From an uncultured Clostridia bacterium (GTDB lineage Bacteria; Bacillota; Clostridia; TANB77; CAG-508): DNA of 64,000 bases. Below the pieces are notes generated by a model. It was not told the origin of the DNA, did not search any database, and was given only the letters and a program-made list of their open reading frames with translations. Made by a program: the position numbers and the translations under genes. The stretch lies in assembly GCA_947631745.1 (NCBI GenBank), contig CANRMM010000002.1:3364-67363 (forward strand). The letters run 5' to 3'. Positions 1,596-36,564 of this stretch are shown piece by piece (the stretch's first letter is position 1; every line of letters starts with the position of its first letter).

Positions 1596-1742
1596 ATGTT
1601 TGTATATGTGAAGTAAAAAAATATTATTTAAATGAGTCTTTGAATTTGATATATGGGAATTCGGGACTTGTTTTTTTATGGAAAAATGTATATAATGATT
1701 AAATAATTTTACTAGATGAAGAAAATCAGATTGGAGGAAAAT

Positions 1743-2033
1743 ATGGCAGAAGTAAGTAAAGAAGAATTATTATATATTGCAAAGTTAGCAGACTTAAATT
1801 TGAAAGATGAAGAAATAGATAAATATTTATTACATCTTCAAGATATTTTAAATTTTGCTAATATTGTAAATAATGCGAATGTTGATGGATTAGATATTAC
1901 AATAGGTGCTAATGAGGCAAAGAATGTTTTTCGTAAAGATGAAGTAGTTGTGTTTGAAGATAATGAAGCATTACTACAAAATGCACCGGATAAAGAGAGG
2001 AATATGTTTAAAATTCCTAAGGTAATCCAATGA
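1743..2033 (+). CDS. gatC: Asp/Glu-tRNA amidotransferase subunit C
   Basis: MAEVSKEELLYIAKLADLNLKDEEIDKY... typical GatC; GGAGGAAAAT ATG; followed by gatA/gatB. Confidence 0.9.
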   Translation: MAEVSKEELLYIAKLADLNLKDEEIDKYLLHLQDILNFANIVNNANVDGLDITIGANEAKNVFRKDEVVVFEDNEALLQNAPDKERNMFKIPKVIQ

Positions 2034-2044
2034 TAGGAGGAAAT

Positions 2045-2677
2045 ATGAGGTTAGGAATTGACATCGATGATACTATTTCGGATACTTATCAAATTGTAAT
2101 GGAGTATGCGAAAAATTTTACCAAGCAATATTGCCATCGTGAGTATAATGATATTGAAAAGAGGCTTGGAAATATAGAGACACATTATTATATACAAGAG
2201 GTTTTTGAGTGGAATACTGAAGAAGAGGAAGCTTTTTTCAAACAATATTACCGAAAATTTATTGATGCAGTAAAACCAAAAGAAGATGCTCAGAAGATTT
2301 TACAAGAATTATATTGTCATCATGAAATTATTTTAATTACAGCTAGATGGGAAGATGAAAAAGACAATGGAATTAAGGAAGCAACAAAGAGGTGGCTAGA
2401 GCAATATCAAATTCCTTATAATAAATTATATTTGAATCGCCCTAAATTAGAAGTATGTAAGGAAAATAAAATTAATGTTTTTATTGATGATAGTTATGTG
2501 AATTGTAAATCTGTTCAAAGTGATGGAATTAAGACATATATGATGGATTGTAAATCTAATCAAAATATAGAAGATGACAGCATTGAGCGTGTTTATAATT
2601 GGAATGATATTTATGAGAAACTAAAAAAATATGAGGGGGAAAATGCAAATGGAAATTACTACTCTTACCGTTCATGA
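2045..2677 (+). CDS. HAD-superfamily 5'(3')-deoxyribonucleotidase-like (NT5C-type) hydrolase
   Basis: N-terminal DxDxT motif ([14 protein letters not shown]), later FIDDS motif; about 210 aa; sits between gatC and gatA, 3' end overlaps gatA start. Confidence 0.6.
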
Positions 2678-4127
2678 GTTACAAGAAAAACTAAAAAATA
2701 AAGAGCTTACGAGTTATGAAATTACAAAAGCATATACAGACAGAATTGCTGAAAAAGAAAAAGATGTACAAGCTTTTGTAACAGATTTATCAGAGGTAGC
2801 TCTAAATCAAGCAAAGGAAATAGATGATAAAAGAAAAAAAGGAGAGATTACAAATAATTTAGCAGGTATTCCAATAGGAATAAAAGATATTATTTGTACA
2901 AAAGGTGTTAGGACAACTTGTAGTTCTAGAATGCTAGAAAATTTTATAGCACCTTATGATGCAACTGTTATGGAAAAAATTAATGAAGAGCATCTTATTG
3001 ATTTGGGAAAATTAAATATGGATGAATTTGCGATGGGAGGCTCTACAGAATATTCATATTTTAAGAAGACAAGAAATCCATGGAATTTAGATAAAGTACC
3101 TGGAGGTTCATCAGGAGGTTCTGCTGCAGCAGTTGCTGCTGGTATGGTACCTTGGGCTTTAGGAACAGATACAGGAGGTTCTATTAGACAACCAGCTAGT
3201 TTTTGTGGAATTGTTGGAATGAAACCAACTTATGGTCTTGTTTCTAGGTATGGTGTTGTGGCATTTGCTTCATCACTTGATCAAGTTGGACCTATGACAA
3301 AAGATGTAACAGATTGTGCAATGCTTTTAAATATTATTGCTGGTCATGATGAAAAAGATTCTACATCTGTGGATAATGGGGATAAAGACTATACAAAATC
3401 GCTTAAAGCTGATGTTAAAGGATTAAAAATAGGAATTCCAAAAGAATATTTTGGAGAAGGAATTAATCCAGAAGTAAAAGAAAAATTACAAGAAGCAATT
3501 GAAAGATATAAGAAATTAGGTGCTGTTGTTGAAGAATGTTCTTTAAATATTGCAGATTATGCATTAGCTACTTACTATATTATTGCTTGTGCTGAGGCCA
3601 GTTCAAACTTAGGTAGATTTGATGGAATCCGTTATGGATATCGTACAGAAAATTATACTAATTTAAAAGAATTATACCGTAATTCTAGAAGTGAAGGCTT
3701 TGGTGCAGAGGTAAAAAGAAGAATTATTTTAGGAACGTATGTACTTTCATCAGGATATTATGATGCATATTACAAAAAAGCACAACAAGTAAGAACTTTA
3801 GTAATGCAAGAATTTGCAAAATGTTTTGAAAAGTATGATGTACTTTTAACACCAACATCACCAACAGTAGCATTTGATATTGGTTCAAAATCAAATAATC
3901 CATTAGAGATGTATTTGGCAGATATATGTACGGTTTCTGTTAATATAGCAGGTCTTCCTGGAATTTCAATTCCTTGTGGAGTAGATAAAGAAGGAATGCC
4001 TATTGGAATGCAATTGATTGGTAATCGTTTTAGTGAGGAAATATTAATTAGAACAGCATATACTTTTGAACAAGATTTGAAATTTAGAGATAATTATCAA
4101 CCAAAATTCAAAGGAGGTGCAAGGTAG
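2643..4127 (+). CDS. gatA: Asp/Glu-tRNA amidotransferase subunit A
   Basis: Amidase signature [14 protein letters not shown]...[16 protein letters not shown]. Confidence 0.95.
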
Positions 4128-4128
4128 T

Positions 4129-5571
4129 ATGGCAAAAGAAGATTATGAGATGGTAATAGGACTAGAAGTTCATGCAGAGCTTTCTACAAAAACGAAAATA
4201 TTTTGCTCTTGCCCTACTGAATTTGGTGGAGAGCCCAATACGCATACTTGCCCAATTTGTATGGCAATGCCAGGAACACTTCCTGTACTTAATGAAAGAG
4301 TTGTTGAATATGCTGTTAAAGCAGGCTTAGCTACTAACTGTGAAATTGCAAGAGATAGTAAGAATGATAGAAAAAATTATTTTTATCCAGACTTACCAAA
4401 ATCATATCAGATTTCGCAATTTGATAAACCACTTTGTGAGCATGGATATGTAGAAATTGAGGATGATGAAGGAAATCCTAAAAAAATTCGTCTTACAAGG
4501 ATTCATATAGAAGAAGATGCAGGAAAATTAAATCATAATGAATTTGGTGGAGGAAGTTTAGTTGACCTAAATAGGGCAGGAGTGCCTTTAATTGAGATTG
4601 TATCAGAGCCAGATTTGCGTTCATCAGGAGAAGCTGAAAGATATTTAAAGAAATTAAAGTCAATTCTAGAATATATAGAAGTTTCGGATTGTAAGATGCA
4701 AGAAGGTTCTTTGAGAGCAGATGTTAATGTTTCTGTTCGTAAAAAAGATGCAGATAAGTTTGGAACCAGAACTGAAATGAAGAATATGAATTCATTTAAG
4801 GCAATTACTAGAGCAATTGAGTATGAAGCAGATAGACAAATTGATGTGATTGAAGATGGAGGAAAAATTGACCAAGAAACTTTAAGATGGGATGATGTAT
4901 CTGGAAAGACTTTTTCTATGAGAGATAAGGAAAATGCACAAGACTATCGTTATTTTCCAGATCCAGATTTAGTAGCTATTAAACTTTCTGAAGAGTATAT
5001 TGAGAATATTAGAAAAGGATTACCAGAGTTACCAGAAAGCAGAAAGGCAAGATATATGGACGAATTTAAACTTTCAGAAAAGGATAGTAGATTGCTTACT
5101 GCATCAAAGTATTTATCAAATATGTTTGAAGAAGCGGAAAGCATTTGTAAAAATGCAAAGTCTGTTGCTAACTGGTTGTTATCTGATATTTCAAGAATTT
5201 TAAATGAAAAAGAAATGGAGCCAGAAAATATTCCATTTACAGGAAGAGACCTTGCTACAGTAGTACAATTGATAGATAAAGGAACTATTAGTTCTGCTAT
5301 TGCTAAAAAAGTAGTAGAAGAATTATTTGAAAATCCAAAAAATCCTGAAGAGATTATAAAGGAGAAAGGTTGGATTCAAATTTCTGATGAAGGTGCTATT
5401 AAAGAAGTTGTTATGAAAATATTAGAAAATAATCCTCAATCTATTGCAGATTATAAAGCTGGAAAAGATAGAGCATTAGGATTTTTAGTTGGCCAAGCTA
5501 TGAAAGAAACAAAAGGAAAAGCAAATCCTCAGATGCTAAATAAAATGTTTTTAGAGGAATTAAAAAAATAA
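4129..5571 (+). CDS. gatB: Asp/Glu-tRNA amidotransferase subunit B
   Basis: YEMVIGLEVHAELSTKTKIFC...RIHIEEDAGK... and C-terminal GatB/YqeY tail; SD AAAGGAGG. Confidence 0.95.
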   Translation: MAKEDYEMVIGLEVHAELSTKTKIFCSCPTEFGGEPNTHTCPICMAMPGTLPVLNERVVEYAVKAGLATNCEIARDSKNDRKNYFYPDLPKSYQISQFDKPLCEHGYVEIEDDEGNPKKIRLTRIHIEEDAGKLNHNEFGGGSLVDLNRAGVPLIEIVSEPDLRSSGEAERYLKKLKSILEYIEVSDCKMQEGSLRADVNVSVRKKDADKFGTRTEMKNMNSFKAITRAIEYEADRQIDVIEDGGKIDQETLRWDDVSGKTFSMRDKENAQDYRYFPDPDLVAIKLSEEYIENIRKGLPELPESRKARYMDEFKLSEKDSRLLTASKYLSNMFEEAESICKNAKSVANWLLSDISRILNEKEMEPENIPFTGRDLATVVQLIDKGTISSAIAKKVVEELFENPKNPEEIIKEKGWIQISDEGAIKEVVMKILENNPQSIADYKAGKDRALGFLVGQAMKETKGKANPQMLNKMFLEELKK

Positions 5572-5587
5572 AGATATAAAATTAGAA

Positions 5588-5630
5588 AAGCTCTTAAAAT
5601 GAAATTATTTCATTTTAAGAGCTTGCTTTT
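5588..5630 (+). terminator. rho-independent terminator after gatB
   Basis: 17-bp stem AAGCTCTTAAAATGAAA / TTTCATTTTAAGAGCTT followed by T-rich tract. Confidence 0.8.
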
Positions 5631-5650
5631 ATGTATATTTTTTCATCTGA

Positions 5651-5884
5651 TTAAAAATGAATCCGAAAGCAAATAAAAGCAACTAAGAAAAATAGACTTG
5701 TTTGAAATAAGGAAATGCCAACGAAAAATAATGAAGGAATATGTAATGATTCATAGATTGTTAAGATAAGAGTAGCGAATAAACAGAAAATAAAACTGAA
5801 ATGGATTCCAGATTTCATTAATTTAAGAATAGATGAATCTAAGGTATGTATTTCATTATAAATTTTTTGAACATTTTTCATAAT
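5651..5884 (-). CDS. hypothetical small membrane protein
   Basis: ORF with two hydrophobic segments; start set to MKNVQ with GTGAGGT SD; no recognisable family. Confidence 0.35.
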   Translation of the reverse strand: MMKNVQKIYNEIHTLDSSILKLMKSGIHFSFIFCLFATLILTIYESLHIPSLFFVGISLFQTSLFFLVAFICFRIHF

Positions 5885-6220
5885 GTACCTCACTTTATAT
5901 GGTTTACTATAATTATATGTTAACATAATATAAAAAGAAAAACAAAGTAAATTTCTGGAAATTTTATTGAAAAATAATTTATTATGTGATTTAATAATTA
6001 GGATTAAATGTAATAGATATGCTATTACAAATTTATAATAATTTTTTTAGTTTTATTCTAAAATGAGATTTCAAGATATTTAATTCAAATTAAATTTAAA
6101 TCTAAAAGCGAATCGCTTGATTATTTCAAATAATAATAAAAAATGTGAGATAGGAGGTGCTATTTTAATTAAATAGCATATTTAAAGCATTTAAAATATT
6201 AATAAAGGAGAAAAATAATA

Positions 6221-7183
6221 TTGATAGAAAATAAACAAGAAACAGGCGAAGAAAAAATGGAAAAAAGAAAATTGTTAATACCTAAAATAGATGTTGTTTT
6301 TCATTCTCTTTTTCGATCTAGTAAAGAAAAGTTAATAGGATATTTTATATCAAGTTTAATTCAAAAAAAGGTAAAGGTTATATATGTAGATAAAGATAGG
6401 CATTTGATGAGAAAATATCCAGAAGAAAAATTAGGCATTTTAGATTTACGTACAGAACTAGAAGGTGGAGTTATTTGTAATATAGAAGTACAATTGGCAA
6501 ATCCTGGGAATATTGTAGATCGAATATTATATTATTGGAGCAGAGCATTTGGTGAACAACTGAAAGAAGGAGATGAATACCAAGAATTAAATAAAACAAT
6601 AGGAATATTGATTGTAGATTTTAAATTGAAAGAAATGGAGGGAATAGAGAAATTAGGAACAAAATGGAAGATAATGGCAGAAGGAGAGGAAAATCGAATA
6701 TTGACAGAAAAGCTAGAATTAATTATACTAGAAATACCAAAAGCAAGAGAAATGGTAAAAATGGGGAAAAAAGATAAAATAGTGGAATGGCTAATGTTTT
6801 TGGATAATCCAAATAGTGTGGAGGTAACAAAAATAATGGAGGAGAACGAAGAAATAAAGGAAGCTGTGGAAGAATTAGAAGAAATTAGTCAAGACGAAGA
6901 ATTAAAAAGAGTAGCTTTTTTGAAAGAAAAATATATACGAGATGAAAAAAGTGCAAGAAGATATTATAAAGAACAAGGATTAGAAGAAGGTAGAATATTA
7001 GGAATAAAGCAAGGTGTAAAAGAAGGAATAAAAGAAGGAAAAAAAGAAGGAATAAAGGAAGGCAAAAAAATAAATACAGAGGAAATTGCAAAAAAAATGC
7101 TACAAAAAAATTTTCCAATAGAAGTGATTATGGAGATAACAAATTTAACAGAAGAAGAAGTTAAGAAGATTCAATCTAATTAA
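6221..7183 (+). CDS. Rpn-family recombination-promoting nuclease / PD-(D/E)XK putative transposase
   Basis: LIPKIDVVFHSLF...ILDLRTELEGGVICNIEVQL pattern of Rpn/YhgA (PDDEXK_2) proteins; C-terminal KEGIKEGKKEG repeats; SD AAAGGAG before TTG start (ATG 6257 alternative). Confidence 0.75.
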   Translation: MIENKQETGEEKMEKRKLLIPKIDVVFHSLFRSSKEKLIGYFISSLIQKKVKVIYVDKDRHLMRKYPEEKLGILDLRTELEGGVICNIEVQLANPGNIVDRILYYWSRAFGEQLKEGDEYQELNKTIGILIVDFKLKEMEGIEKLGTKWKIMAEGEENRILTEKLELIILEIPKAREMVKMGKKDKIVEWLMFLDNPNSVEVTKIMEENEEIKEAVEELEEISQDEELKRVAFLKEKYIRDEKSARRYYKEQGLEEGRILGIKQGVKEGIKEGKKEGIKEGKKINTEEIAKKMLQKNFPIEVIMEITNLTEEEVKKIQSN

Positions 7184-7189
7184 AAGAAA

Positions 7190-7218
7190 AAAGACAGGCT
7201 ATTTGATAGTCTGTCTTT
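7190..7218 (+). terminator. terminator hairpin after Rpn gene
   Basis: AAAGACAGGCTA / TAGTCTGTCTTT stem, 5-nt loop. Confidence 0.6.
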
Positions 7219-7256
7219 AAAAATTAAATAAAAAACTGTGCACAATTTTTTATTCC

Positions 7257-7523
7257 TTATGCATTTACTGCATTTAATTTTTTAGCTAAGTTTGATTTTT
7301 TTCTAGCAGCTGTATTTTTTACAATAACTCCTTTTGTACATGCTTGATCAATTTTTCTTGTAGCTGTTGAGAATAATTTTGTAGCTTCTTCAACATTATT
7401 GTTTGCTAGAGCTTCTTCAAATCTTTTAATTGCAGTTTTATATTCAGATTTAATCATATTATTTCTTAATGTTTTCTTCTCAATAACATTAACACGTTTG
7501 ATAGCTGATTTAATGTTTGGCAT
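7257..7523 (-). CDS. rpsT: 30S ribosomal protein S20
   Basis: [22 protein letters not shown]... canonical S20 N-terminus; SD GGGAGGTG. Confidence 0.95.
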
Positions 7524-7564
7524 ATTTAGCACCTCCCTTTATGTTCGTAAATCTAACGTATAAG

Positions 7565-7593
7565 ATTATATCATACGGTTTCTATTTTGGCAA
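7565..7593 (-). promoter_or_regulatory. sigma-A promoter of rpsT
   Basis: Minus strand TTGCCA (7588-7593), 17 nt spacer, TATAAT (7565-7570). Confidence 0.65.
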
Positions 7594-7761
7594 GAGGTTT
7601 ACAGAAAAATGCGAAGATTTATGAGAAAATAAATGAATATTGAATAAATGTGTAGTGAAGGTCTAGCTTTTTTATATAATATACTTGAAAAAAATAGAAT
7701 AAACATATATAATAGGAATACACTAAAACAAAGGAACGAAAAATTGGAAGGAGAGATTGTT

Positions 7762-8292
7762 ATGAATATAAAAATAACAAGCAAAGATTTAGTGGCTACA
7801 GAAGCAATCAAAGATTACATTGATAGAAAATCAGAAAGATTGGTAAAATATTTTGGAGATGACTTAGATGTTTATGTAACGATTAAAACAGAGGGAAGTA
7901 ATCAAGTTGCAGAAATGAGCTTAAAAGTAGAATCTACAGATTTTAGAGCAGTAACGGCTCATAGAGATTTATATGCTTCTATCGATAAAGATATGGATAT
8001 ATTAGAAGGTCAAGTAAGAAAGATGAAAACTAAGAAAGATAAGCAAAATATGACAGAGTCTATTCGTGTAAAGGAAACAGCACAACATGAGGAAACAGAG
8101 GTATCTGATGAAATTGTAAAAGTTTTATATTATGATATAAAACCTATGACACCAGAAGATGCAAAGTTAAAATTACAAGAGCAACCTCAAAATCGTTTCT
8201 TAGCATTCATTGATATAGATACAGGAAAGACAGATATTATTTATCGTTTAAAAGATAACAAAAATTATGGATTAGTAGAGCCAGAGGCATAA
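7762..8292 (+). CDS. hpf: ribosome hibernation promoting factor (long HPF)
   Basis: MNIKITSKDLVATEAIKDYIDRKSERLVKYF plus C-terminal dimerisation-type tail; start moved to ATG 7762 behind GGAAGGAGAG. Confidence 0.9.
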   Translation: MNIKITSKDLVATEAIKDYIDRKSERLVKYFGDDLDVYVTIKTEGSNQVAEMSLKVESTDFRAVTAHRDLYASIDKDMDILEGQVRKMKTKKDKQNMTESIRVKETAQHEETEVSDEIVKVLYYDIKPMTPEDAKLKLQEQPQNRFLAFIDIDTGKTDIIYRLKDNKNYGLVEPEA

Positions 8293-8306
8293 AACTGAAT
8301 ACATAA

Positions 8307-8340
8307 AAAAGACATAGTAATTTTTATTACGATGTCTTTT
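8307..8340 (+). terminator. terminator after hpf
   Basis: AAAAGACATAGTAA / TTACGATGTCTTTT hairpin with T-run. Confidence 0.7.
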
Positions 8341-8370
8341 ATTATATATAAAAAATAGGAGAGAATAAAT

Positions 8371-8706
8371 ATGGTATATCAAATGAAGCTATTAGAAAAA
8401 CCTTTTCAAGCAATAAAAGATGGAACAAAAACAATAGAATATAGGTTATATGATGAAAAAAGAAGAAAATTAAAAATTGGTGATAAAATAGAATTTTCAA
8501 AATTACCTGATTTATATGAAAAAATAACAGTGGAAATATTGGATTTTTATCATGCAAAAAATTTTAAAGAGTTATTTGAAAAATGTATGGATAGCCAATT
8601 AGAAGTTGAAGAGCATATAAAAACAATTTATAATATTTATTCAAAAGAGGAAGAAAAACAATATGGAGTGATTGGAATAAAAATTAAAGTTGATGATACT
8701 GATTAA
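8371..8706 (+). CDS. ASCH domain protein
   Basis: MKLLEKPFQAIKDGTKTIEYRLYDEKRRKLKIGDKIEF resembles ASCH (ASC-1 homology) fold proteins. Confidence 0.65.
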   Translation: MVYQMKLLEKPFQAIKDGTKTIEYRLYDEKRRKLKIGDKIEFSKLPDLYEKITVEILDFYHAKNFKELFEKCMDSQLEVEEHIKTIYNIYSKEEEKQYGVIGIKIKVDDTD

Positions 8707-8737
8707 AAAAATATAGTGAAAGAAGAGTATAACAGAA

Positions 8738-9235
8738 ATGAAAATAAATATTGTTATGGTGGAACCTGAAATACCACAAAATACAGGAAATATTGCAAGG
8801 ACGTGCGCTGCAATTGGTGCTAAATTACATTTAGTAAAACCATTAGGATTTGATATTAGTGATAAATACTTGAAAAGAGCAGGTCTTGATTATTGGGATA
8901 AACTCGAAATAGAAGAACATGATTCATTAGAAAAATTTTTGGAAAAATATAAACCAGAAGAGCATAATATGTATTATGCAACAACAAAAGGCCAACATTG
9001 TTATTCAGATGTAGATTATTCTAAAATGGATGAAGTATTTTTACTATTTGGAAAAGAAACAAAAGGATTACCAGAAGATTTACTACAAAAATATATTACA
9101 AATACAATTCGTATTCCGATGAGAGAACATTTGCGTTCACTAAATTTGTCAAATTCAGTAGCCATTGTTGTATATGAAGTTTTAAGACAAGTTGGTTTTA
9201 ATGAATTGGAACAAATTAGTAATTATTTTGAATAA
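8738..9235 (+). CDS. trmL: tRNA (cytidine/uridine-2'-O-)-methyltransferase TrmL (SpoU family)
   Basis: NIVMVEPEIPQNTGNIARTCAAIGAKLHLVKPLGF...LFGKETKGLP...SLNLSNSVAIVVYE. Confidence 0.9.
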   Translation: MKINIVMVEPEIPQNTGNIARTCAAIGAKLHLVKPLGFDISDKYLKRAGLDYWDKLEIEEHDSLEKFLEKYKPEEHNMYYATTKGQHCYSDVDYSKMDEVFLLFGKETKGLPEDLLQKYITNTIRIPMREHLRSLNLSNSVAIVVYEVLRQVGFNELEQISNYFE

Positions 9236-19982: not shown

Positions 19983-20010
19983 GGGGTGCCTGAAGCGGGC
20001 ACCCCATTTT
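19983..20010 (+). terminator. G+C-rich terminator
   Basis: GGGGTGCC tgaagc(g) GGCACCCC followed by ATTTTT. Confidence 0.8.
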
Positions 20011-20038
20011 TCCATAAACTAAAGTAATAGCTATTGGA

Positions 20039-20053
20039 AGAAACTAGAGGAGC
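20039..20053. repeat. left arm of perfect 15-bp inverted repeat
   Basis: AGAAACTAGAGGAGC; exact reverse complement at 20711-20725. Confidence 0.9.
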
Positions 20054-20106
20054 AAAATTAGCTTTTACTCAGAGGTTATTTATGCTTTTGATTCGAATAA
20101 ATTAAA

Positions 20107-20685
20107 TTATCTCCAAGCATCTTTCATCAAATAATACCAATAAGTAACAGTACAGGGGAGATTATCGTCATAGTTTCCATTGGCATCAGTAATACGGAAG
20201 TAAATTTGAACTTCTTGATCTCTAGTCACAGGGGCTGATCCAGTTAAAACAGTACCCGTTTTCCCTACAGAGGAAATGCCTTCACCACCAAGCAGAACAG
20301 AAGAGGTATAGGCTTTTAGAATTTGGACAGTCATTTTAACTGACTTGCTACAGCTATATTCGGCATAAATGGCAACGGAATAACCGGTAACACCGATTTT
20401 TTTAACAGGAGTTACGTTATTTCCCTCCATTGTAAACGTACCGACATTAATCCAACCAGTCACATTATTCCAGGTTTCCACTTCAGAAATAGAAGAAACC
20501 GAAGAAAGAACTGTGGAAGTGGGAAGTGTAGCAATGGCTTCTCCGTCACTGTTAAAAGTGATAGTCTGCTTTTCGCTCACAATCACCGAAGGGTTATTGG
20601 CATCGGTAGATTCTGAAGCAGAAGAGGCAGGAACTACGGAGAAACACATAATTGTCGCTAACAAGAGTGCTAAAAACCGTTTCAT
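20107..20685 (-). CDS. secreted protein of unknown family (higher G+C than surroundings)
   Basis: Start MKRFLALLLATIMCFSVVPASSASE (signal peptide) behind AAAGGAG; beta-rich, 2 Cys; codon usage visibly less A+T-biased than neighbours. Confidence 0.6.
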   Translation of the reverse strand: MKRFLALLLATIMCFSVVPASSASESTDANNPSVIVSEKQTITFNSDGEAIATLPTSTVLSSVSSISEVETWNNVTGWINVGTFTMEGNNVTPVKKIGVTGYSVAIYAEYSCSKSVKMTVQILKAYTSSVLLGGEGISSVGKTGTVLTGSAPVTRDQEVQIYFRITDANGNYDDNLPCTVTYWYYLMKDAWR

Positions 20686-20710
20686 AGTAAAAATACTCCT
20701 TTCATAGTTG

Positions 20711-20725
20711 GCTCCTCTAGTTTCT
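20711..20725. repeat. right arm of perfect 15-bp inverted repeat
   Basis: GCTCCTCTAGTTTCT = reverse complement of 20039-20053. Confidence 0.9.
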
Positions 20726-20744
20726 ATGTGCAAAGTTTGCACAT
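20726..20744. promoter_or_regulatory. 19-bp perfect palindrome (candidate operator)
   Basis: ATGTGCAAA g TTTGCACAT, directly abutting the right inverted-repeat arm, in the 5' region of the secreted-protein gene. Confidence 0.6.
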
Positions 20745-20760
20745 GCTTAATATAACATAA

Positions 20761-20767
20761 TTCGACA
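20761..20767 (-). promoter_or_regulatory. perfect Spo0A-box (TGTCGAA)
   Basis: Plus strand TTCGACA = rc of 0A-box consensus TGNCGAA; lies between the Spo0A-like gene and the secreted-protein gene. Confidence 0.5.
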
Positions 20768-20785
20768 ATATTAGATATAAAGAAA

Positions 20786-20813
20786 AATGTATCTTAATGT
20801 ATCTTGATGTATC
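20786..20813. repeat. three direct repeats with 10-bp phasing
   Basis: AATGTATCTT AATGTATCTT GATGTATC; overlaps the stop codon of the Spo0A-like gene. Confidence 0.7.
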
Positions 20814-21570
20814 AAACATAAAAGCTACGAATTATATTTTTATGAACATTTAACAGAACGATACTTATAATAGTTTTTATATTAGGTTTGTGTGGTGTTG
20901 TTAGAGAAAAATAGTTAGTTAATTTGTCTTCAGGGCAGTTATAATACATTGCTTCAGTAGCTCTAACGATATTACATTTTATATTATTACTTGTTTGATT
21001 ATATCTTTGAGCGATTGTTGGATAAACATACTTATTTAAGTTTTCTAGTAGTGCGTCACCTTGAGAAAAAATCATATATATTACATCAATTAAATATTGG
21101 GTACCTTTATGAGAGACATCATAGCTTAGGTATAAAAGTTCATCTGTAATTAAACTTTTTATGTTATGTATTTTATATTTTTCTTCCTTAATTAAAATTA
21201 GTTCATTTATTTGTGATACTATTTGCTCAGTATTTAATGTATTGGGTAATAATTTGTAAATCATCGAATTATCTTTTAACACAGGGTTACTAATTAAATC
21301 CATTTCACCGCAAGTGACAAGAATAGAATTATTATATTGATTTTGATGTTCAGAAACTAATCTGTTAAGTATTTCAATTCCATCATAGTTAGGCATTTTT
21401 AAATCCAGTAATACAATATCTATATTATTTGCAGAACTTAAAAGTTCTAAAGTTTCCTTCCCATCGACTGTAATATTAGAAACTCTTATATAATTAGAAG
21501 TTGCATTAATAGATGACATTAAACTTCTTGCATAATCAACATTATTGTTTGCTATTAATAAATTTAGCAT
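20812..21570 (-). CDS. Spo0A-like response regulator paralog (degenerate receiver + Spo0A_C DNA-binding domain)
   Basis: Receiver: LLIANNN (Asn-Asn where the acidic pair DD is expected), VLLDLKMPNYDG keeps the phospho-Asp position; C-terminal HKGTQYLIDVIYMI...YPTIAQRYNQTSNNIKCNIVRATEAMY matches the Spo0A C-terminal pattern. Confidence 0.75.
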   Translation of the reverse strand: MLNLLIANNNVDYARSLMSSINATSNYIRVSNITVDGKETLELLSSANNIDIVLLDLKMPNYDGIEILNRLVSEHQNQYNNSILVTCGEMDLISNPVLKDNSMIYKLLPNTLNTEQIVSQINELILIKEEKYKIHNIKSLITDELLYLSYDVSHKGTQYLIDVIYMIFSQGDALLENLNKYVYPTIAQRYNQTSNNIKCNIVRATEAMYYNCPEDKLTNYFSLTTPHKPNIKTIISIVLLNVHKNIIRSFYV

Positions 21571-33345: not shown

Positions 33346-35796
33346 ATGATATACAAATTTACAAATCGTGCTGAGAAAGCAATTGAAATTGCAAATAGTA
33401 TTGCAATGGAATTAGGTCATAATTATATTGGCACAGAGCATTTATTATATGGTTTATCAAAAGAAGGAAATGGCGTAGCTAGCAAAGTTTTAGAATCACA
33501 GGGAATTATTCCTGATAGAATTGTAGAAGAAATTGAAAATCTTATAGGTATAGGAGATACGATTAATGATTCTAGCACAATTGGCTTTACACCAAGGACA
33601 AAAAGAGTAGTAGAGAGTGCTTTTTTAGAAGCTCGTAAATTAGGTTCAGAATTTATTGGCACAGAACATTTATTAATAGGAATTATGCGTGAGGGAGACA
33701 GTGTGGCTGTTAGAATTATGATGGACTTAAATGTTAATCCTCAAAAATTATATAATGAAATTGTAAATGTAATTCGAGAAGATGAAAATGCTACTAATAG
33801 TTCTAATCAAAATAATGTAAAAAATAAGGGAAGCTTTCATCAAACACCAACTTTAAATCAGTTTGGAAATGATTTAACAAAACAGGCAACAGAAGGAAAA
33901 CTTGACCCTGTTATAGGAAGAAAGAGTGAAATTGAAAGAGTTATACAAATTCTTTCGAGGAGGACAAAAAATAATCCATGTTTAATAGGTGAACCTGGTG
34001 TTGGTAAAACTGCTGTAGTGGAAGGACTAGCAGAGAAAATTGTTGCAGAGGATGTCCCTGAAACTTTAAAGAATAAAAGAGTAGTTAGTTTAGATATTTC
34101 GAGTATGGTGGCTGGTGCTAAATATAGAGGTGACTTTGAAGAGAGAATAAAAAAATGTCTGTCTGAAGTAAAAAAAGTGGGAGATGTTATTTTATTCATT
34201 GATGAAATTCATACAATTGTTGGTGCTGGTTCAGCAGAAGGAGCAGTTGATGCGGCAAATATTTTAAAACCATTACTTGCAAGAGGAGAAGTTCAAGTTA
34301 TTGGTGCTACAACTTTAAATGAATATCGTAAATACATTGAAAAGGATGCTGCTTTAGAAAGAAGGTTTAGTCCTGTTACTGTAGGAGAACCAACGATAGA
34401 AGAAACGATAAAAATATTAGAAGGTATTCAGGATAAATATGAAGCACATCATAATGTTAAAATTACACCAGAAGCAATTAAGTCGGCTGTTAATTTATCA
34501 GTTCGATATATTAATGATAGATTTTTACCAGATAAAGCTATTGATTTAGTTGATGAAGCGGCTTCACGTGTTAAAATGAAAACATATACAATGCCGGATA
34601 GTATTAAGGAATTGGAAGAGAAAATTGCAGAGATTGATAAGGAAAAAGAAGATGCTATTCGTATGCAAGATTTTGAAAAAGCAGCGACTTTGAGAGATGA
34701 AGAAAAAGAGAAAAAGGATAAGTTAGAAAAAGAAAAGGAAAAATGGAAAAATAAAAATACGAGAAATGTTATTACATTAACAGAAGAAGATATTGCTAGT
34801 GTTATTGCAAGTTGGACAAATATACCAGCTAATAAAATTACACAGGATGAAAATGAAAAATTGAAAAATTTAGAGGAAACATTACATCAAAGAGTTATTG
34901 GACAAGATGAGGCTGTGAAGGCAGTGGCTAAGGCTATTAGAAGAGGAAGAGTAGGACTAAAGGATCCAAACAGACCAATTGGCTCATTCTTATTTTTGGG
35001 ACCTACAGGAGTAGGAAAAACAGAACTTTCAAAGGCTTTAGCAGAAAGCCTATTTGGAAATGAAAATGCAATGATAAGAGTTGATATGTCTGAATATATG
35101 GAACCACATTCAGTTTCAAAATTAATTGGTTCACCTCCAGGATATGTTGGATATGATGAAGGGGGACAATTAACGGAAAAAATTAGAAGAAAGCCATATT
35201 CTGTTATCCTTTTTGATGAAATTGAAAAAGCACATCCAGATGTTATGAATATGTTATTACAAATATTAGATGATGGAAGATTGACAGATGCTACTGGTAG
35301 AACAGTTAATTTTAAGAATACAGTTATTATTATGACTTCTAATATTGGTGCAAGGTTGATTACAGATAAAACAACTTTAGGATTTTCTGTTGGAAGTGAT
35401 TCAGATGAGTCAAGACAAAAAGAATATGAAAATACCAAAAAAGATGTTATGGCTGAATTAAAAAAGCAATTTAGACCTGAATTTATTAATCGTATAGATG
35501 AAATTATTGTATTCCATAAATTAAATCAAGAAGACATTGATAAAATTATTGATATTATGTTAAAACAAGTACAATCACGTTTAAAAGAACAAGAGATGGA
35601 TGTTGAATTTGATGATTCTGTTAAAGGATTTATTTCTAAAAAAGGAATTGATATTAATTATGGAGCACGTCCATTAAAGAGAGCTATTCAAAGTCATTTA
35701 GAAGATCGTATTGCTGAGGCTATATTAGATGGAAAAATTAAAAAGAAAAAGAAAGTAAAGGTTTCTGTCGAAAATGATGAAGTAACAATTAAATAA
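33346..35796 (+). CDS. clpC: ATP-dependent Clp protease ATP-binding subunit ClpC
   Basis: Two Clp_N repeats, two AAA+ modules (GEPGVGKTA, GPTGVGKTE), UVR motif MQDFEKAATLRDEE. Confidence 0.95.
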   Translation: MIYKFTNRAEKAIEIANSIAMELGHNYIGTEHLLYGLSKEGNGVASKVLESQGIIPDRIVEEIENLIGIGDTINDSSTIGFTPRTKRVVESAFLEARKLGSEFIGTEHLLIGIMREGDSVAVRIMMDLNVNPQKLYNEIVNVIREDENATNSSNQNNVKNKGSFHQTPTLNQFGNDLTKQATEGKLDPVIGRKSEIERVIQILSRRTKNNPCLIGEPGVGKTAVVEGLAEKIVAEDVPETLKNKRVVSLDISSMVAGAKYRGDFEERIKKCLSEVKKVGDVILFIDEIHTIVGAGSAEGAVDAANILKPLLARGEVQVIGATTLNEYRKYIEKDAALERRFSPVTVGEPTIEETIKILEGIQDKYEAHHNVKITPEAIKSAVNLSVRYINDRFLPDKAIDLVDEAASRVKMKTYTMPDSIKELEEKIAEIDKEKEDAIRMQDFEKAATLRDEEKEKKDKLEKEKEKWKNKNTRNVITLTEEDIASVIASWTNIPANKITQDENEKLKNLEETLHQRVIGQDEAVKAVAKAIRRGRVGLKDPNRPIGSFLFLGPTGVGKTELSKALAESLFGNENAMIRVDMSEYMEPHSVSKLIGSPPGYVGYDEGGQLTEKIRRKPYSVILFDEIEKAHPDVMNMLLQILDDGRLTDATGRTVNFKNTVIIMTSNIGARLITDKTTLGFSVGSDSDESRQKEYENTKKDVMAELKKQFRPEFINRIDEIIVFHKLNQEDIDKIIDIMLKQVQSRLKEQEMDVEFDDSVKGFISKKGIDINYGARPLKRAIQSHLEDRIAEAILDGKIKKKKKVKVSVENDEVTIK

Positions 35797-35827
35797 AAGT
35801 GTATATGTGTCAATATGTGATAGAAGC

Positions 35828-35856
35828 TTGAGTAAATCAACATAATGTGTTATAAT
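35828..35856 (+). promoter_or_regulatory. near-consensus extended -10 promoter in front of the G+C-rich ORF
   Basis: TTGAGT (35828-35833), 17 nt spacer, TGt TATAAT (35848-35856). Confidence 0.6.
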
Positions 35857-35900
35857 AAATATGTGTTACCCTTATATAAAAATTAAAAGGAGGTATTATC

Positions 35901-36458
35901 ATGGGTTACACTTACATTCACAAGGTCGCCAACCAGAGAAAGGACGCAGTCCGCATTACGTGCGAGGGCGACATCCCTGAGTTCCTGAAAGGGAGCATCC
36001 GGTTCCAGAATGATGCTACCTTGGTTCTCGACTGTGTCGAGGGATCTGAGCTCACGAGAGTGGGTGTGGTCGTCGGCTATGAGAAGTCTGAGCGGACGCC
36101 TAGCGGCTACAACTGCTGGGTCATCGGCAATGCTGCCACCAATCTGATGGAGATTGATGGGGTCTTTTATAAGAAGGCCACTATCCTGAAGGCGATGGCT
36201 GTTTCCGATGAGTTCCCGAAATTCCTCACTGGTGCTATCATTCGCCACAACAACGACGGTTCCTGGACTATCAAGACCGATTGGGGTGAGTCTACGGGCT
36301 TCCCTGGAAAGGCCTACTGGGTTCTGTACGGGACAAAGGCTGATGGTACTCCGGATGCCAATATCCTTACCAAGACGGAAAAGTCCTATCAGGATTATGT
36401 CGTCTGTGACGAGGATGGACAGGATATCGGGCTTCTCTGCGAAATCGATCCGACCTAA
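35901..36458 (+). CDS. orphan 185-aa protein of unknown family, compositionally foreign (G+C-rich)
   Basis: SD AAAGGAGGT 6 nt upstream of the ATG; G/C-ending codons throughout (AAG, CTG, GGC, ATC, GAC); internal duplication IPEFLKGSIRFQND / FPKFLTGAIIRHNND; no signal peptide or TM. Confidence 0.7.
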   Translation: MGYTYIHKVANQRKDAVRITCEGDIPEFLKGSIRFQNDATLVLDCVEGSELTRVGVVVGYEKSERTPSGYNCWVIGNAATNLMEIDGVFYKKATILKAMAVSDEFPKFLTGAIIRHNNDGSWTIKTDWGESTGFPGKAYWVLYGTKADGTPDANILTKTEKSYQDYVVCDEDGQDIGLLCEIDPT

Positions 36459-36511
36459 AAGTATCTCCTCAACCGATGAAGTTCCATTAGCTTCTAGGTT
36501 GTAAAAAACAC

Positions 36512-36539
36512 AAAGCTTCCACTCATTTGTGGAAGCTTT
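36512..36539. terminator. bidirectional terminator shared with convergent CDF gene
   Basis: AAAGCTTCCAC tcattt GTGGAAGCTTT, with an A-run before and T's after. Confidence 0.8.
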
Positions 36540-36564
36540 TGTGGTTGAATATGGTAAATATATT

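Follow-up and report, generated by a model that had tools for sequence, protein, structure and literature searches.

Between clpC and a convergent CDF transporter gene of an uncultured Clostridia bacterium lies a single G+C-rich gene, and this compositional island is real and not an artefact. The explanation that we consider best, and to which we give about an even chance, is that this orphan gene has spread horizontally and that an active process, which probably operates on the mRNA, maintains its synonymous G+C. It would be an accessory gene that stands alone and belongs to a small, hitherto unnamed family of proteins of about 185 amino acids. Horizontal transfer would have taken the family into gut bacteria with reduced genomes (A+T-rich uncultured Clostridia, Candidatus Saccharibacteria and Gastranaerophilales), in at least one case aboard a large-serine-recombinase element.

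An atypical G+C content is usually taken to mean recent horizontal transfer, with amelioration serving as a clock. The gene appears to break this clock; it is G+C-rich while the adjoining clpC is saturated at synonymous sites, and it behaves in this way in dozens of A+T-rich genomes unrelated to one another, with no donor in sight. If this is true, compositional detectors of horizontal transfer may label old residents as new arrivals. If selection maintains the composition, the gene would provide an unusually clean natural system for measuring selection on synonymous sites and mRNA folding under extreme mutational bias; the same system could separate such selection from GC-biased conversion.

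The compositional island and its locus

G+C content was examined across the window, which is the whole 64-kb stretch of DNA analysed (overall G+C 0.279). In 200-nt windows it is 0.485-0.555 inside the gene and 0.245-0.29 in the flanks, and the bin 36001-36500 (0.514) is the sole 500-nt bin above 0.37 across the 64 kb. The coding sequence (CDS) has a G+C content of 0.527 and a third-position G+C content (GC3) of 0.656; the latter is 21 SD above the host ORFs (mean 0.160, sd 0.024, range 0.10-0.21; n=34 long ORFs). An abrupt switch to about half G+C at the ATG at 35901 had been reported in a preliminary description of this DNA, and is borne out by the 200-nt windows, the 500-nt bins and GC3.

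The G/C-ending codons mentioned there are equally evident. Third positions of the CDS are A.06, C.37, G.29 and T.28, against A.41, C.05, G.11 and T.42 expected for the same protein under host codon usage. Among the codons of the gene are CTC, CTG, TCC and CGG, whose share of their respective codon families is about 0-1% in the host; it favours AAG, GAG and CAG where the host favours the A-ending counterparts. Log-odds shifts relative to the host, derived from the codon table, are about 3.2 for NNR codons and about 2.5 for NNY codons. Because the two shifts are similar, the apparent avoidance of A at wobble positions was not accepted as a strand-specific signal.

Such codon usage might itself be what is selected, if rare and poorly decoded codons throttle translation or make it conditional, so that a harmful protein is kept low or tied to tRNA states. 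Both the codons listed above and the confinement of the enrichment to the CDS fit this explanation. However, it leaves the excess mRNA folding of the family (see below) without a cause, some copies (L088, L028) are host-like in their codons, and the strong consensus promoter and Shine-Dalgarno (SD) sequence argue against a need for low expression; we consider it highly unlikely. The 64-kb window contains no tRNA genes.

Table 1. Positions of the inserted gene, its signals and overlapping frames within the window
Feature	Positions	Strand	Basis
Inserted cassette (promoter, leader, CDS and ~17-nt tail), ~680 nt	35797..36475	+	Comparison with the empty clpC-terminator junction of the nearest relative
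Predicted sigma-70-type promoter TTGAGT-17-TGtTATAAT, extended -10	35828..35856	+	10/12 consensus plus TG
A+T-rich 5' leader; SD AAAGGAGGT at 35886-35894, 6 nt from ATG	35857..35900	+	Read from sequence
CDS, predicted 185-aa all-beta protein, uncharacterised family	35901..36458	+	ORF, homologues, dN/dS, pLDDT
Short 3' tail of the insert, moderately G+C-rich	36459..36475	+	Missing from the empty site in L041
Bidirectional terminator hairpin, 11-bp stem, native to clpC and the convergent CDF gene	36512..36539	.	Outside the insert
Antisense shadow ORF, by-product of codon usage	35883..36248	-	Opens when TTA, CTA, TCA are avoided
Out-of-frame shadow ORF, by-product of G+C richness	36208..36504	+	ORF listing; no supporting evidence

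The features of the locus are collected in Table 1. The promoter and SD of the preliminary description stand as sequence signals, and the 185-aa frame exists in the ORF listing. In the nearest relative (L041/L042) the site is empty; the clpC stop is followed by 84 nt and then by the CDF gene. This spacer aligns to position 36476 onward (gatgaagtt...taggttgtaaaaaa...hairpin), and native sequence restarts about 17 nt past the stop of the gene, near 36476. The site is also empty in L045. Judged by this alignment, promoter and gene were inserted together between clpC and its terminator, as a piece of about 680 nt.

The terminator is indeed an 11-bp hairpin shared with the CDF gene, as first described. 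It belongs to the native site and lies outside the insert, because it is found in the empty sites of L041/L042; it is also present 3' of the gene in L040. The gene has no attC-like repeat of its own on its 3' side, where the native terminator is the sole hairpin. An integron-type gene cassette was ruled out, since the gene has its own promoter and the downstream hairpin is native to the empty site. The reported lack of an accompanying recombinase was also upheld, with no recombinase domain found within about 6 kb of the gene. For this reason, and because the insert is so short, cargo of a large serine recombinase was set aside for this locus.

Two long shadow ORFs overlap the gene, as had been noticed. 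They were said to occur nowhere else in the window, which is incorrect; two minus-strand ORFs lie within clpC itself, one of 183 aa (34887-35438) and one of 113 aa (33858-34199). A second DNA or RNA function that dictates the composition, in the form of an overlapping antisense gene or an embedded structured RNA, is extremely unlikely. It would fit the unusual stability of the family mRNAs and the codon-aligned antisense frame, which is stop-free over the full CDS here and in L039, L012, L020, L026 and L033. The frame is closed in L028 (36 codons), L001, L011 and others, however, being cut to 36-119 codons in these three. An antisense gene was rejected because the frame is not conserved and because avoiding TTA, CTA and TCA is enough to open it. 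RNAalifold found no shared structure (-8.4 kcal/mol over 588 columns, with a double change in only 3 of 27 pairs) and Rfam gave no match above noise at the locus; an embedded structured RNA or riboswitch was rejected on these grounds, and this explanation as a whole is largely refuted.

The protein family and its distribution

Sequence comparison establishes a real gene under strong purifying selection. There are 214 homologues at 60-85% identity, and a dN/dS of 0.06-0.12 indicates that the 185-aa frame is strongly constrained. The product is predicted to be a cytoplasmic, two-lobed all-beta protein, with pLDDT values of 92.5 and 96.5 for the structure models (AF2: pLDDT 96.5, pTM 0.77).

The product had been assigned to no nameable family, and searches of Pfam, NCBIfam, PHROGs, PADLOC, PDB and BFVD agree with this. 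Pfam, PHROGs, NCBIfam, PADLOC and PDB (by sequence and with two profiles) yielded no significant match, and this was also true of distant or long members of the family. The best Pfam match is DUF7043 (13.6 bits, cut-off 27) and the best NCBIfam match has an E-value of 0.032 (12 bits, cut-off 805). The match to phrog_18435 (E 8e-4) covers 44 residues only and is missing in distant members; PADLOC gave no match at all. A papain-like cysteine protease (Cwp84-like) was rejected, as the match of 45-54 residues at E 0.014 falls to 0.76 with the family profile and is not recovered by fold search. A literature search found no description of the protein family or of a persistent-G+C phenomenon.

A Foldseek E-value of 1e-3 or lower, or a TM score of at least 0.5, was taken as a fold match. 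The best matches have E 0.076-0.087 and TM no higher than 0.19 against PDB (two models), and E 0.019 and TM 0.27 against BFVD; the modelled fold would have no relative among the structures in either collection. Weak half-length matches in BFVD do resemble small phage beta-domains, including 'PGDYG protein', in that pieces of 70-100 residues superpose (rmsd 4-5 Å, probability 0.7-0.9). Unlike such domains, the family has no Pfam or PHROGs profile match, and all of these E-values are above 0.01. Neither DNA nor protein searches matched anything in INPHARED phages, PLSDB plasmids or IMG/VR; there is consequently no evidence in these collections for a phage or plasmid reservoir.

An internal duplication had been taken to suggest two tandem homologous domains. 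Profile-profile comparison does not support this; hhalign of the two halves aligns only a 10-residue (D/E)xPxFLxG motif, with a probability of 6%. In the models, the secondary-structure pattern is similar between the N- and C-terminal lobes. The fold is compact, very confidently modelled and without a solved relative, and it is found in Clostridia, Saccharibacteria and Melainabacteria-like gut lineages; these properties clearly recommend it for structural and functional studies of uncultured gut bacteria.

The gene was found at about 94 loci in at least 32 chromosomal contexts when 185,579 species genomes, metagenome contigs and a collection of 15 billion proteins were scanned. The hosts belong to three phyla (uncultured Clostridia, Saccharibacteria and Gastranaerophilales), and the family has clearly crossed phylum boundaries by horizontal spread. 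Copies of different clades differ by 25-35% at the nucleotide level. There is no recurrent neighbour or operon partner across the 32 contexts. Upstream gaps of at least 100 nt in family loci, together with the spread over at least 32 synteny groups, point to an autonomous gene. Remote superfamily members such as P0303 have Arg/Ala/Gly-rich sequences.

What the protein does can be guessed at with little assurance. The best guess, which is at the very most a speculative one, is a self-sufficient protective or binding protein that is immunity- or resistance-like, because of the accessory and autonomous nature of the gene, its horizontal spread and its very strong constraint. Ross and co-workers reportedly described in 2019 an acquired interbacterial defence system, with orphan immunity genes on recombinase-associated elements in gut bacteria. 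As a functional analogy only, the gene resembles orphan immunity or resistance genes in being small and autonomous, in having its own promoter, in lying sometimes beside a recombinase and in being patchy among relatives. Unlike them, it has no toxin partner, forms no arrays and has no sequence or fold similarity to known examples; PADLOC and Pfam do not recognise it.

Age of the insertion and persistence of G+C richness

In 7 contigs, which come from at least 3 samples, an identical copy of the gene occupies this clpC/CDF junction. An assembly chimera or an engineered insert had been proposed; the abrupt switch at the ATG beside consensus expression signals would fit a chimera or a codon-optimised insert. 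These contigs and the diverged orthologues at the same site refute a chimera; an engineered insert is refuted by natural homologues, over 200 of them in gut metagenomes from around the world, that are under purifying selection (dN/dS about 0.1). Neither has any practical chance of being right.

Two of the diverged orthologues, L039 (82% aa identity) and L040 (78%), lie directly 3' of clpC. Position and sequence of the promoter are kept in both (TTGAAA/TTGCAA-17-TGgTAGAAT/TGgTAAAAT), and their 5' leaders are homologous by alignment to the one at this locus, where G+C remains at 0.20-0.30 until the ATG. GC3 at the same-site copies (this locus, L039 and L040) is 0.66-0.71 for the gene and 0.14-0.21 for clpC. 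Relatives with the same gene and composition at the same site would be ordinary for a well-known housekeeping family, as the preliminary description pointed out. Such relatives exist, yet the gene belongs to no known housekeeping family, which makes the finding stranger rather than ordinary.

Among the same-site copies, dS is 0.64-1.81 for the gene and 0.89-1.28 for the adjoining clpC tail, the latter resting on 81-162 codons and being near saturation. This locus, L039, L040 and L041 fall into one clade of the clpC-tail tree. Neutral decay simulated over those branches results in a GC3 of 0.26-0.53, even when it starts at 0.7-1.0; a GC3 of at least 0.66 was retained in none of 2000 neutral simulations. 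A parsimony polarity test of S>W against W>S changes (97:88) was discarded, since simulated neutral decay itself yields an apparent W>S excess at these divergences.

The insertion appears not to be recent, because three lineages share site and promoter while synonymous divergence in clpC is saturated; the G+C richness appears to outlast the passive decay of a foreign gene. The earlier interpretation was a very recent horizontal acquisition behind a host-type promoter. Its single foreign gene, host-type promoter and insertion hold, whereas 'very recent' is not supported, in view of the saturated clpC dS and the undecayed GC3. Overall, that description was confirmed in part in its observations and supported in part in its interpretation.

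Composition across the family shows how general this pattern is. The gene has a higher GC3 than its neighbours in each of 28 species genomes, and likewise in 34 further metagenome loci (excess 0.01-0.71, median 0.35). No G+C-rich home genome is found among the approximately 94 loci, where flank G+C is at most 0.44 and neighbour GC3 at most 0.48. In one lineage, gene GC3 is 0.89-0.90 in a host with GC3 0.19. The continuum also reaches host-like values (0.13 in L088, 0.26-0.28 in L028/L030), and copies with shared synteny span 0.27-0.62. At L102 the gene lies within a large-serine-recombinase element that splits a Zip gene and carries a Resolvase/Recombinase/Zn_ribbon_recom protein; GC3 is 0.40 for the gene and 0.14-0.18 for the other cargo genes and the recombinase.

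These data bear on passive amelioration, in which the gene would have been imported repeatedly from unsampled G+C-rich donors, with copies now at different stages of decay and this one fairly young. The continuum from 0.90 to 0.13 is what such a history could leave, the nearest relative's site is empty, and the recombinase of L102 would provide a vehicle; distant members of the P0303 type suggest G+C-richer hosts of remote relatives. However, none of the loci has G+C-rich flanks, and a GC3 of 0.66-0.71 at the shared site compares with 0.53 or less under neutrality despite saturated clpC dS. The enrichment ends at the CDS borders in many independent contexts, where imported DNA should bring donor flanks, and within the L102 element this gene alone is enriched. 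Passive amelioration is, on balance, unlikely.

In the model of Lawrence and Ochman, atypical acquired genes or 'genomic islets' are said to ameliorate towards the host. The gene is like such islets in being single and foreign, with atypical G+C and codons, in being absent from the nearest relative's site, in occurring across phyla and in being recombinase-borne at one locus. Unlike in ameliorating islets, its atypicality persists through saturated synonymous divergence, stops at the limits of the CDS and is seen in at least 32 contexts, with no matching donor known; the lineage at GC3 0.9 is richer than any known host.

Candidate forces on synonymous sites

Folding of the mRNA was compared with synonymous-codon permutations. 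The mean MFE z is -2.81 for 20 family members and -0.57 for 40 host-gene controls (Mann-Whitney p = 1e-6, which is optimistic because the family members are phylogenetically related). The mRNA of this locus has a z of -0.45, with no extra folding relative to its permutations. According to analyses of the Katz and Burge type, native bacterial mRNAs reportedly fold better than codon-shuffled versions. The family agrees with selection for mRNA structure in that its mRNAs are 2-5 SD more stable than synonymous permutations and have an A+T-rich open start region. It differs from the usual case in the size of the effect (mean z -2.8, against -0.6 in neighbours), in the coupling to a three- to five-fold rise in GC3 and in the lack of effect in this copy.

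Biased repair could raise G+C in a different way. Frequent homologous exchange with G/C-biased heteroduplex repair would lift it without any selection on the mRNA; Lassalle and co-workers are said to have proposed GC-biased gene conversion in 2015 for recombining bacterial genes. The NNR and NNY shifts are about equal, as a uniform strong-over-weak bias at synonymous sites predicts, the gene is mobile and exchanged between lineages, and its 3' flank is mildly enriched. The 5' border, however, is sharp and coincides with the start codon. Across the family, G+C is 0.22-0.28 before the ATG, promoter and leader included, 0.37 in the first 30 nt and about 0.5 in the body; past the stop it stays elevated for 60-90 nt and then fades. 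In addition, a divergence of 25-35% between clades should limit homologous exchange, and excess folding over permutations of the same composition is not predicted. The magnitude of the shift, from a GC3 of 0.16 to 0.66-0.90, to our knowledge far exceeds anything reported for bacterial GC-biased gene conversion. We regard this mechanism as decidedly unlikely.

We infer that the composition is upheld by selection and not by biased repair, and that this selection acts on the mRNA. Under the maintained-composition explanation, the gene with its own promoter and SD would have been inserted between the clpC stop and the clpC/CDF terminator in an ancestor of the host lineage; it would use that terminator and would have been inherited at the site since. 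Its G+C-rich synonymous sites would then be a trait of the gene, held far above the host mutational equilibrium, and not a fading donor signature. The force would act on the coding part of the transcript, and would most likely be synonymous-site selection for a stable, highly base-paired mRNA body that follows an open, A+T-rich initiation region.

A bolder form, which we put at somewhat short of an even chance, is that the gene has its own compositional set-point. It would be driven to high G+C (up to 0.9) wherever it landed, including genomes with a GC3 of 0.10-0.20, and in the CDS only; gene-specific mRNA selection or biased repair/retro-processing could be responsible. The new all-beta fold, kept at 60-85% identity across three phyla, would then imply an important cellular target. 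The G+C pattern confined to the CDS is repeated in the L015 sequence.

The G+C-rich gene and its protein family

Between about 35900 and 36500, G+C content in 200-nt windows is 0.485-0.555, up from 0.245-0.29, and it drops again beyond. Among the 128 500-nt bins of the window, only 36001-36500 (0.514) exceeds 0.37. The ORF within this region has a G+C content of 0.527 and a third-codon-position G+C (GC3) of 0.656; the whole window has a G+C content of 0.279. In the window, 34 long host ORFs have a GC3 of 0.160±0.024 (range 0.10-0.21), which places the gene 21 SD outside. At third codon positions the gene has A.06, C.37, G.29, T.28; the same protein written with host codon usage would have A.41, C.05, G.11, T.42. 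Windowed G+C, GC3 and codon usage thus bear out the G+C-rich island of the preliminary description, which was essentially right as an observation; the promoter, hairpin and Shine-Dalgarno (SD) spacing it listed are also present. Two of its details are not retained. Long shadow ORFs are not unique to the island, as A+T-rich clpC also holds two (probably chance frames); the proposed internal duplication is reduced by hhalign of the two halves to a shared 10-residue motif (probability 6%). The second-highest G+C region of the window, 20001-21000 (0.37 and 0.33 in 500-nt bins), has a reversed GC skew.

Features of the gene, its site and related loci (window numbering unless a locus, L, is named)
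Feature	Coordinates	Strand	Detail
Insert	~35797-36475		promoter, leader, CDS and ~17-nt tail; compared with the empty L041/L042 junction
Promoter	35828-35856	+	TTGAGT-17-TATAAT, TG before -10; consensus scan
SD of gene leader	upstream of ATG 35901	+	6-nt spacing; read directly from sequence
G+C-rich ORF	35901-36458	+	185 aa
Hairpin	36512-36539		11-bp stem; consensus scan
Direct repeat TAAAAGT	35794-35800, 36456-36462		7 nt, at clpC stop and gene stop; 662 nt apart
Antisense ORFs in clpC	34887-35438, 33858-34199	-	183 aa, 113 aa
L043 and L044, other genes	5935-7479		406 aa, 99 aa; A+T-rich; no Pfam match
L045, palindrome	5859-5979		near-perfect, ~45 bp per arm
L015, direct repeat	4868-4876, 5550-5558		9 nt, GCATGCCAC
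L102, element	~3560-9140		~5.5 kb
L102, large serine recombinase	7521-9077
L102, promoter-like repeat	4850, 6350		31 nt
L102, family gene	5001-5786		C-terminal extension
L103, family gene	5001-5798		C-terminal extension
L027, family gene	1646-2218		C-terminal extension
L035, family gene copy	5001-5535		apparent frameshift

A 5.8-billion-cluster protein collection contains 214 homologues of the translated product; identity is 61-85% for the best 120, which nearly all have a length near 185 aa and are named 'hypothetical protein' at most. The family is small: a profile searched exhaustively against 1.84 billion representatives yields only 154 clusters. Pairwise dN/dS is 0.06-0.12. Seven contigs from at least 3 samples encode the identical protein at this clpC/CDF junction, which excludes an assembly chimera; an engineered insert is excluded by the diverged natural homologues, which number more than 200. 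Both had been offered as explanations in the preliminary description.

Family searches used the query protein, a 27-member alignment, a 43-member alignment reaching down to 22% identity, and long distant members. The product has no significant match in Pfam, NCBIfam, PHROGs, PADLOC or PDB sequences; a Cwp84-like stretch became weaker once the profile was used and is taken as a chance motif. AlphaFold2 predicts a two-lobed, almost purely beta protein (pLDDT 92.5 with 27 sequences; 96.5 and pTM 0.77 with 43). Foldseek returns no match at E <= 1e-3 in PDB with either model, or in BFVD; half-length pieces only show a weak resemblance to small uncharacterised phage beta-domains. The gene was not found in INPHARED phages, PLSDB plasmids or IMG/VR.

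Several variants of the protein occur. One sub-family (L102, L103, L027 and protein P0261) is longer at the C-terminus by about 30 aa (…LD.IW.SG….I.SP.G..V.V...GAKI..) and, by annotation, has putative N-terminal extensions. Distant members P0310, P0384, P0380, P0367, P0335 and P0325 are 313-402 aa long and end in the two-lobed core; the motif VSNPSAL(E/D)DWRGW(T/N)Y is common to several of them and lies in an N-terminal region that has no match in Pfam, PHROG or cultured phages. The L035 copy (78% identity in its best segment), a possible pseudogene, has an apparent frameshift near the 3' end, and stop codons interrupt the expected frame.

Insertion at the clpC/CDF junction

Relatives of the locus were found through orthologues of the adjacent CDF transporter, and share the gene order from ctsR-mcsA-mcsB-clpC to nifS and metK. 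In the nearest relative (L041/L042; CDF 85% and ClpC 93% identical), 84 nt separate the clpC stop from the CDF gene. This spacer aligns to the window starting at 36476 and contains the same hairpin, which identifies that hairpin as the native clpC/CDF terminator. The clpC-to-CDF spacer, singled out for comparison in the preliminary description, is likewise empty in L045 and is filled in lineages L039 and L040. The spacer of L045 is a long palindrome, standing where the window and L041 have the short terminator hairpin. L043 and L044 hold two other genes at the junction, which is thus a recurrent insertion spot in this lineage.

The two closest relatives of the gene, in L039 (82%) and L040 (78%), also lie directly after a clpC. 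Homology to the promoter and leader of the window extends in both from the -35 box up to and including the SD, with 65 invariant columns; L040 also has the same sequence as the window downstream of the gene. By the ClpC C-terminus, the window, L039, L040 and L041 share a clade (85-91% identity), with L043 and L045 apart (65-79%). Among the three occupied lineages, the gene has a dS of 0.64-1.81 and the clpC tail next to it 0.89-1.28; the cassette has thus co-diverged with its host and is not recent. The preliminary interpretation of a recent horizontal acquisition is thus half right: the empty site and the cross-phylum family show a foreign gene, but one that is neither recent, chimeric nor engineered. 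L041 has either lost the cassette or branched just before its gain.

The insert is bracketed by the repeat TAAAAGT, which is not conserved in L039 or L040. It may be due to chance, or be a trace of microhomology-mediated insertion or deletion.

Composition across the family and its persistence

The gene is richer in G+C than its flanks in all 28 species-representative genomes (21 uncultured Clostridia/Clostridium MAGs, 6 Saccharibacteria including Nanosyncoccaceae, and 1 Gastranaerophilales), by +0.05 to +0.32. Gene GC3 is 0.26-0.89 in A+T-rich hosts (neighbours 0.10-0.21) and 0.48-0.63 in Saccharibacteria (neighbours 0.38-0.48). In 41 further distinct metagenome copies the GC3 excess is 0.01-0.71 (median 0.35) and never negative. 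G+C-rich flanks were seen at none of the family loci examined, and a donor is thus not apparent. Midpoint rooting places the base of the gene tree at a Saccharibacteria-like GC3 of about 0.6; the 0.88-0.90 of the L015/L050/L093 lineage, in a host of GC3 0.19, cannot come by decay from such a value.

The enrichment is confined to the CDS. As far as the ATG, G+C stays at 0.22-0.28; it reaches 0.37 over the initial 30 nt and about 0.5 further into the gene, and declines over the 60-90 nt that follow the stop. The most G+C-rich copy, that of L015 (GC3 0.89), has a CDS of 62% G+C between a promoter and leader that are A+T-rich and a terminator of host type; a 9-nt direct repeat flanks promoter and gene. 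In the L102 element, the family gene has a GC3 of 0.40, and the other cargo genes and the recombinase 0.14-0.18. The effect is therefore specific to the gene, not region- or element-wide. The L102 element splits a Zip transporter gene at the HDxPEG motif, carries the family gene among its cargo, and contains a repeated promoter-like sequence.

The 94 loci fall into at least 32 synteny groups, and each neighbour family is limited to 3 groups at most. The gap upstream of the gene is nearly always 100 nt or longer, and neighbours lie in either orientation. The family gene stands alone as an autonomous unit and brings its own promoter, as in the window, L015 (TTGCGT-17-TGaTATAAT) and L102 (TTGACA...TGTTATAAT).

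A donor signature decaying under host mutation bias should mostly be gone over branches with such divergence. With a host equilibrium GC3 of 0.16 and 70% of synonymous changes assumed to be S<->W (from flank counts), modelled neutral decay over these branches leaves 19-43% of the starting GC3 excess. From a start of 0.7-1.0 it predicts a GC3 of 0.26-0.53; 0.66 or more was kept in none of 2000 simulations. The observed values in the three occupied lineages are 0.66, 0.71 and 0.68, with 0.14-0.21 in the adjacent clpC. Parsimony polarises 97 synonymous changes as S>W and 88 as W>S; this count was discarded, since simulated neutral decay also yields an apparent W>S excess at these divergences. Among about 17 near-identical genomes, in an alignment that is not fully collinear, the gene gives 14:7 or 9:12 depending on polarisation; about 16:5 is expected from flank rates.

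Possible causes of the composition and role of the gene

Relative to host usage, the log-odds shift is about 3.2 for A-to-G choices and about 2.5 for T-to-C; this similarity speaks for a strong-over-weak force that is roughly uniform, and against strand-specific avoidance of A. Folding was compared with permutations preserving protein and codon counts, and with 40 neighbouring host-gene segments. The mean z is -2.81 for 20 family mRNAs and -0.57 for the host segments (Mann-Whitney p = 1e-6, the members not being independent), and the excess includes A+T-adapted copies such as L028. We favour selection on mRNA stability as what keeps the G+C: it would act on the gene so that an open, A+T-rich start region is followed by an mRNA body that is base-paired and generically stable. 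This is held loosely, because the window's own mRNA has no excess folding (z -0.45), the members are kin, and other forces are possible; GC-biased conversion could contribute, as could selection for rare codons. There is no common RNA structure (RNAalifold -8.4 kcal/mol over 588 columns, double changes in 3 of 27 pairs), and the locus has no Rfam match.

As the gene is accessory, horizontally spread, self-sufficient and very strongly constrained across phyla, its product might serve in protection or binding, directed at a conserved target in the manner of immunity or resistance proteins; at best this is a doubtful guess. A single horizontally acquired gene is a known kind of object. What is unusual is an unnamed family with an unmatched predicted fold, common to three phyla of reduced-genome gut bacteria, and a G+C-rich, CDS-confined synonymous composition that appears to be maintained rather than decaying. 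Neither the family nor the maintained composition is described in the literature searched.

The full-length antisense frame was considered as a gene and rejected. It opens with the avoidance of TTA, CTA and TCA, is closed in several copies, and is a by-product.
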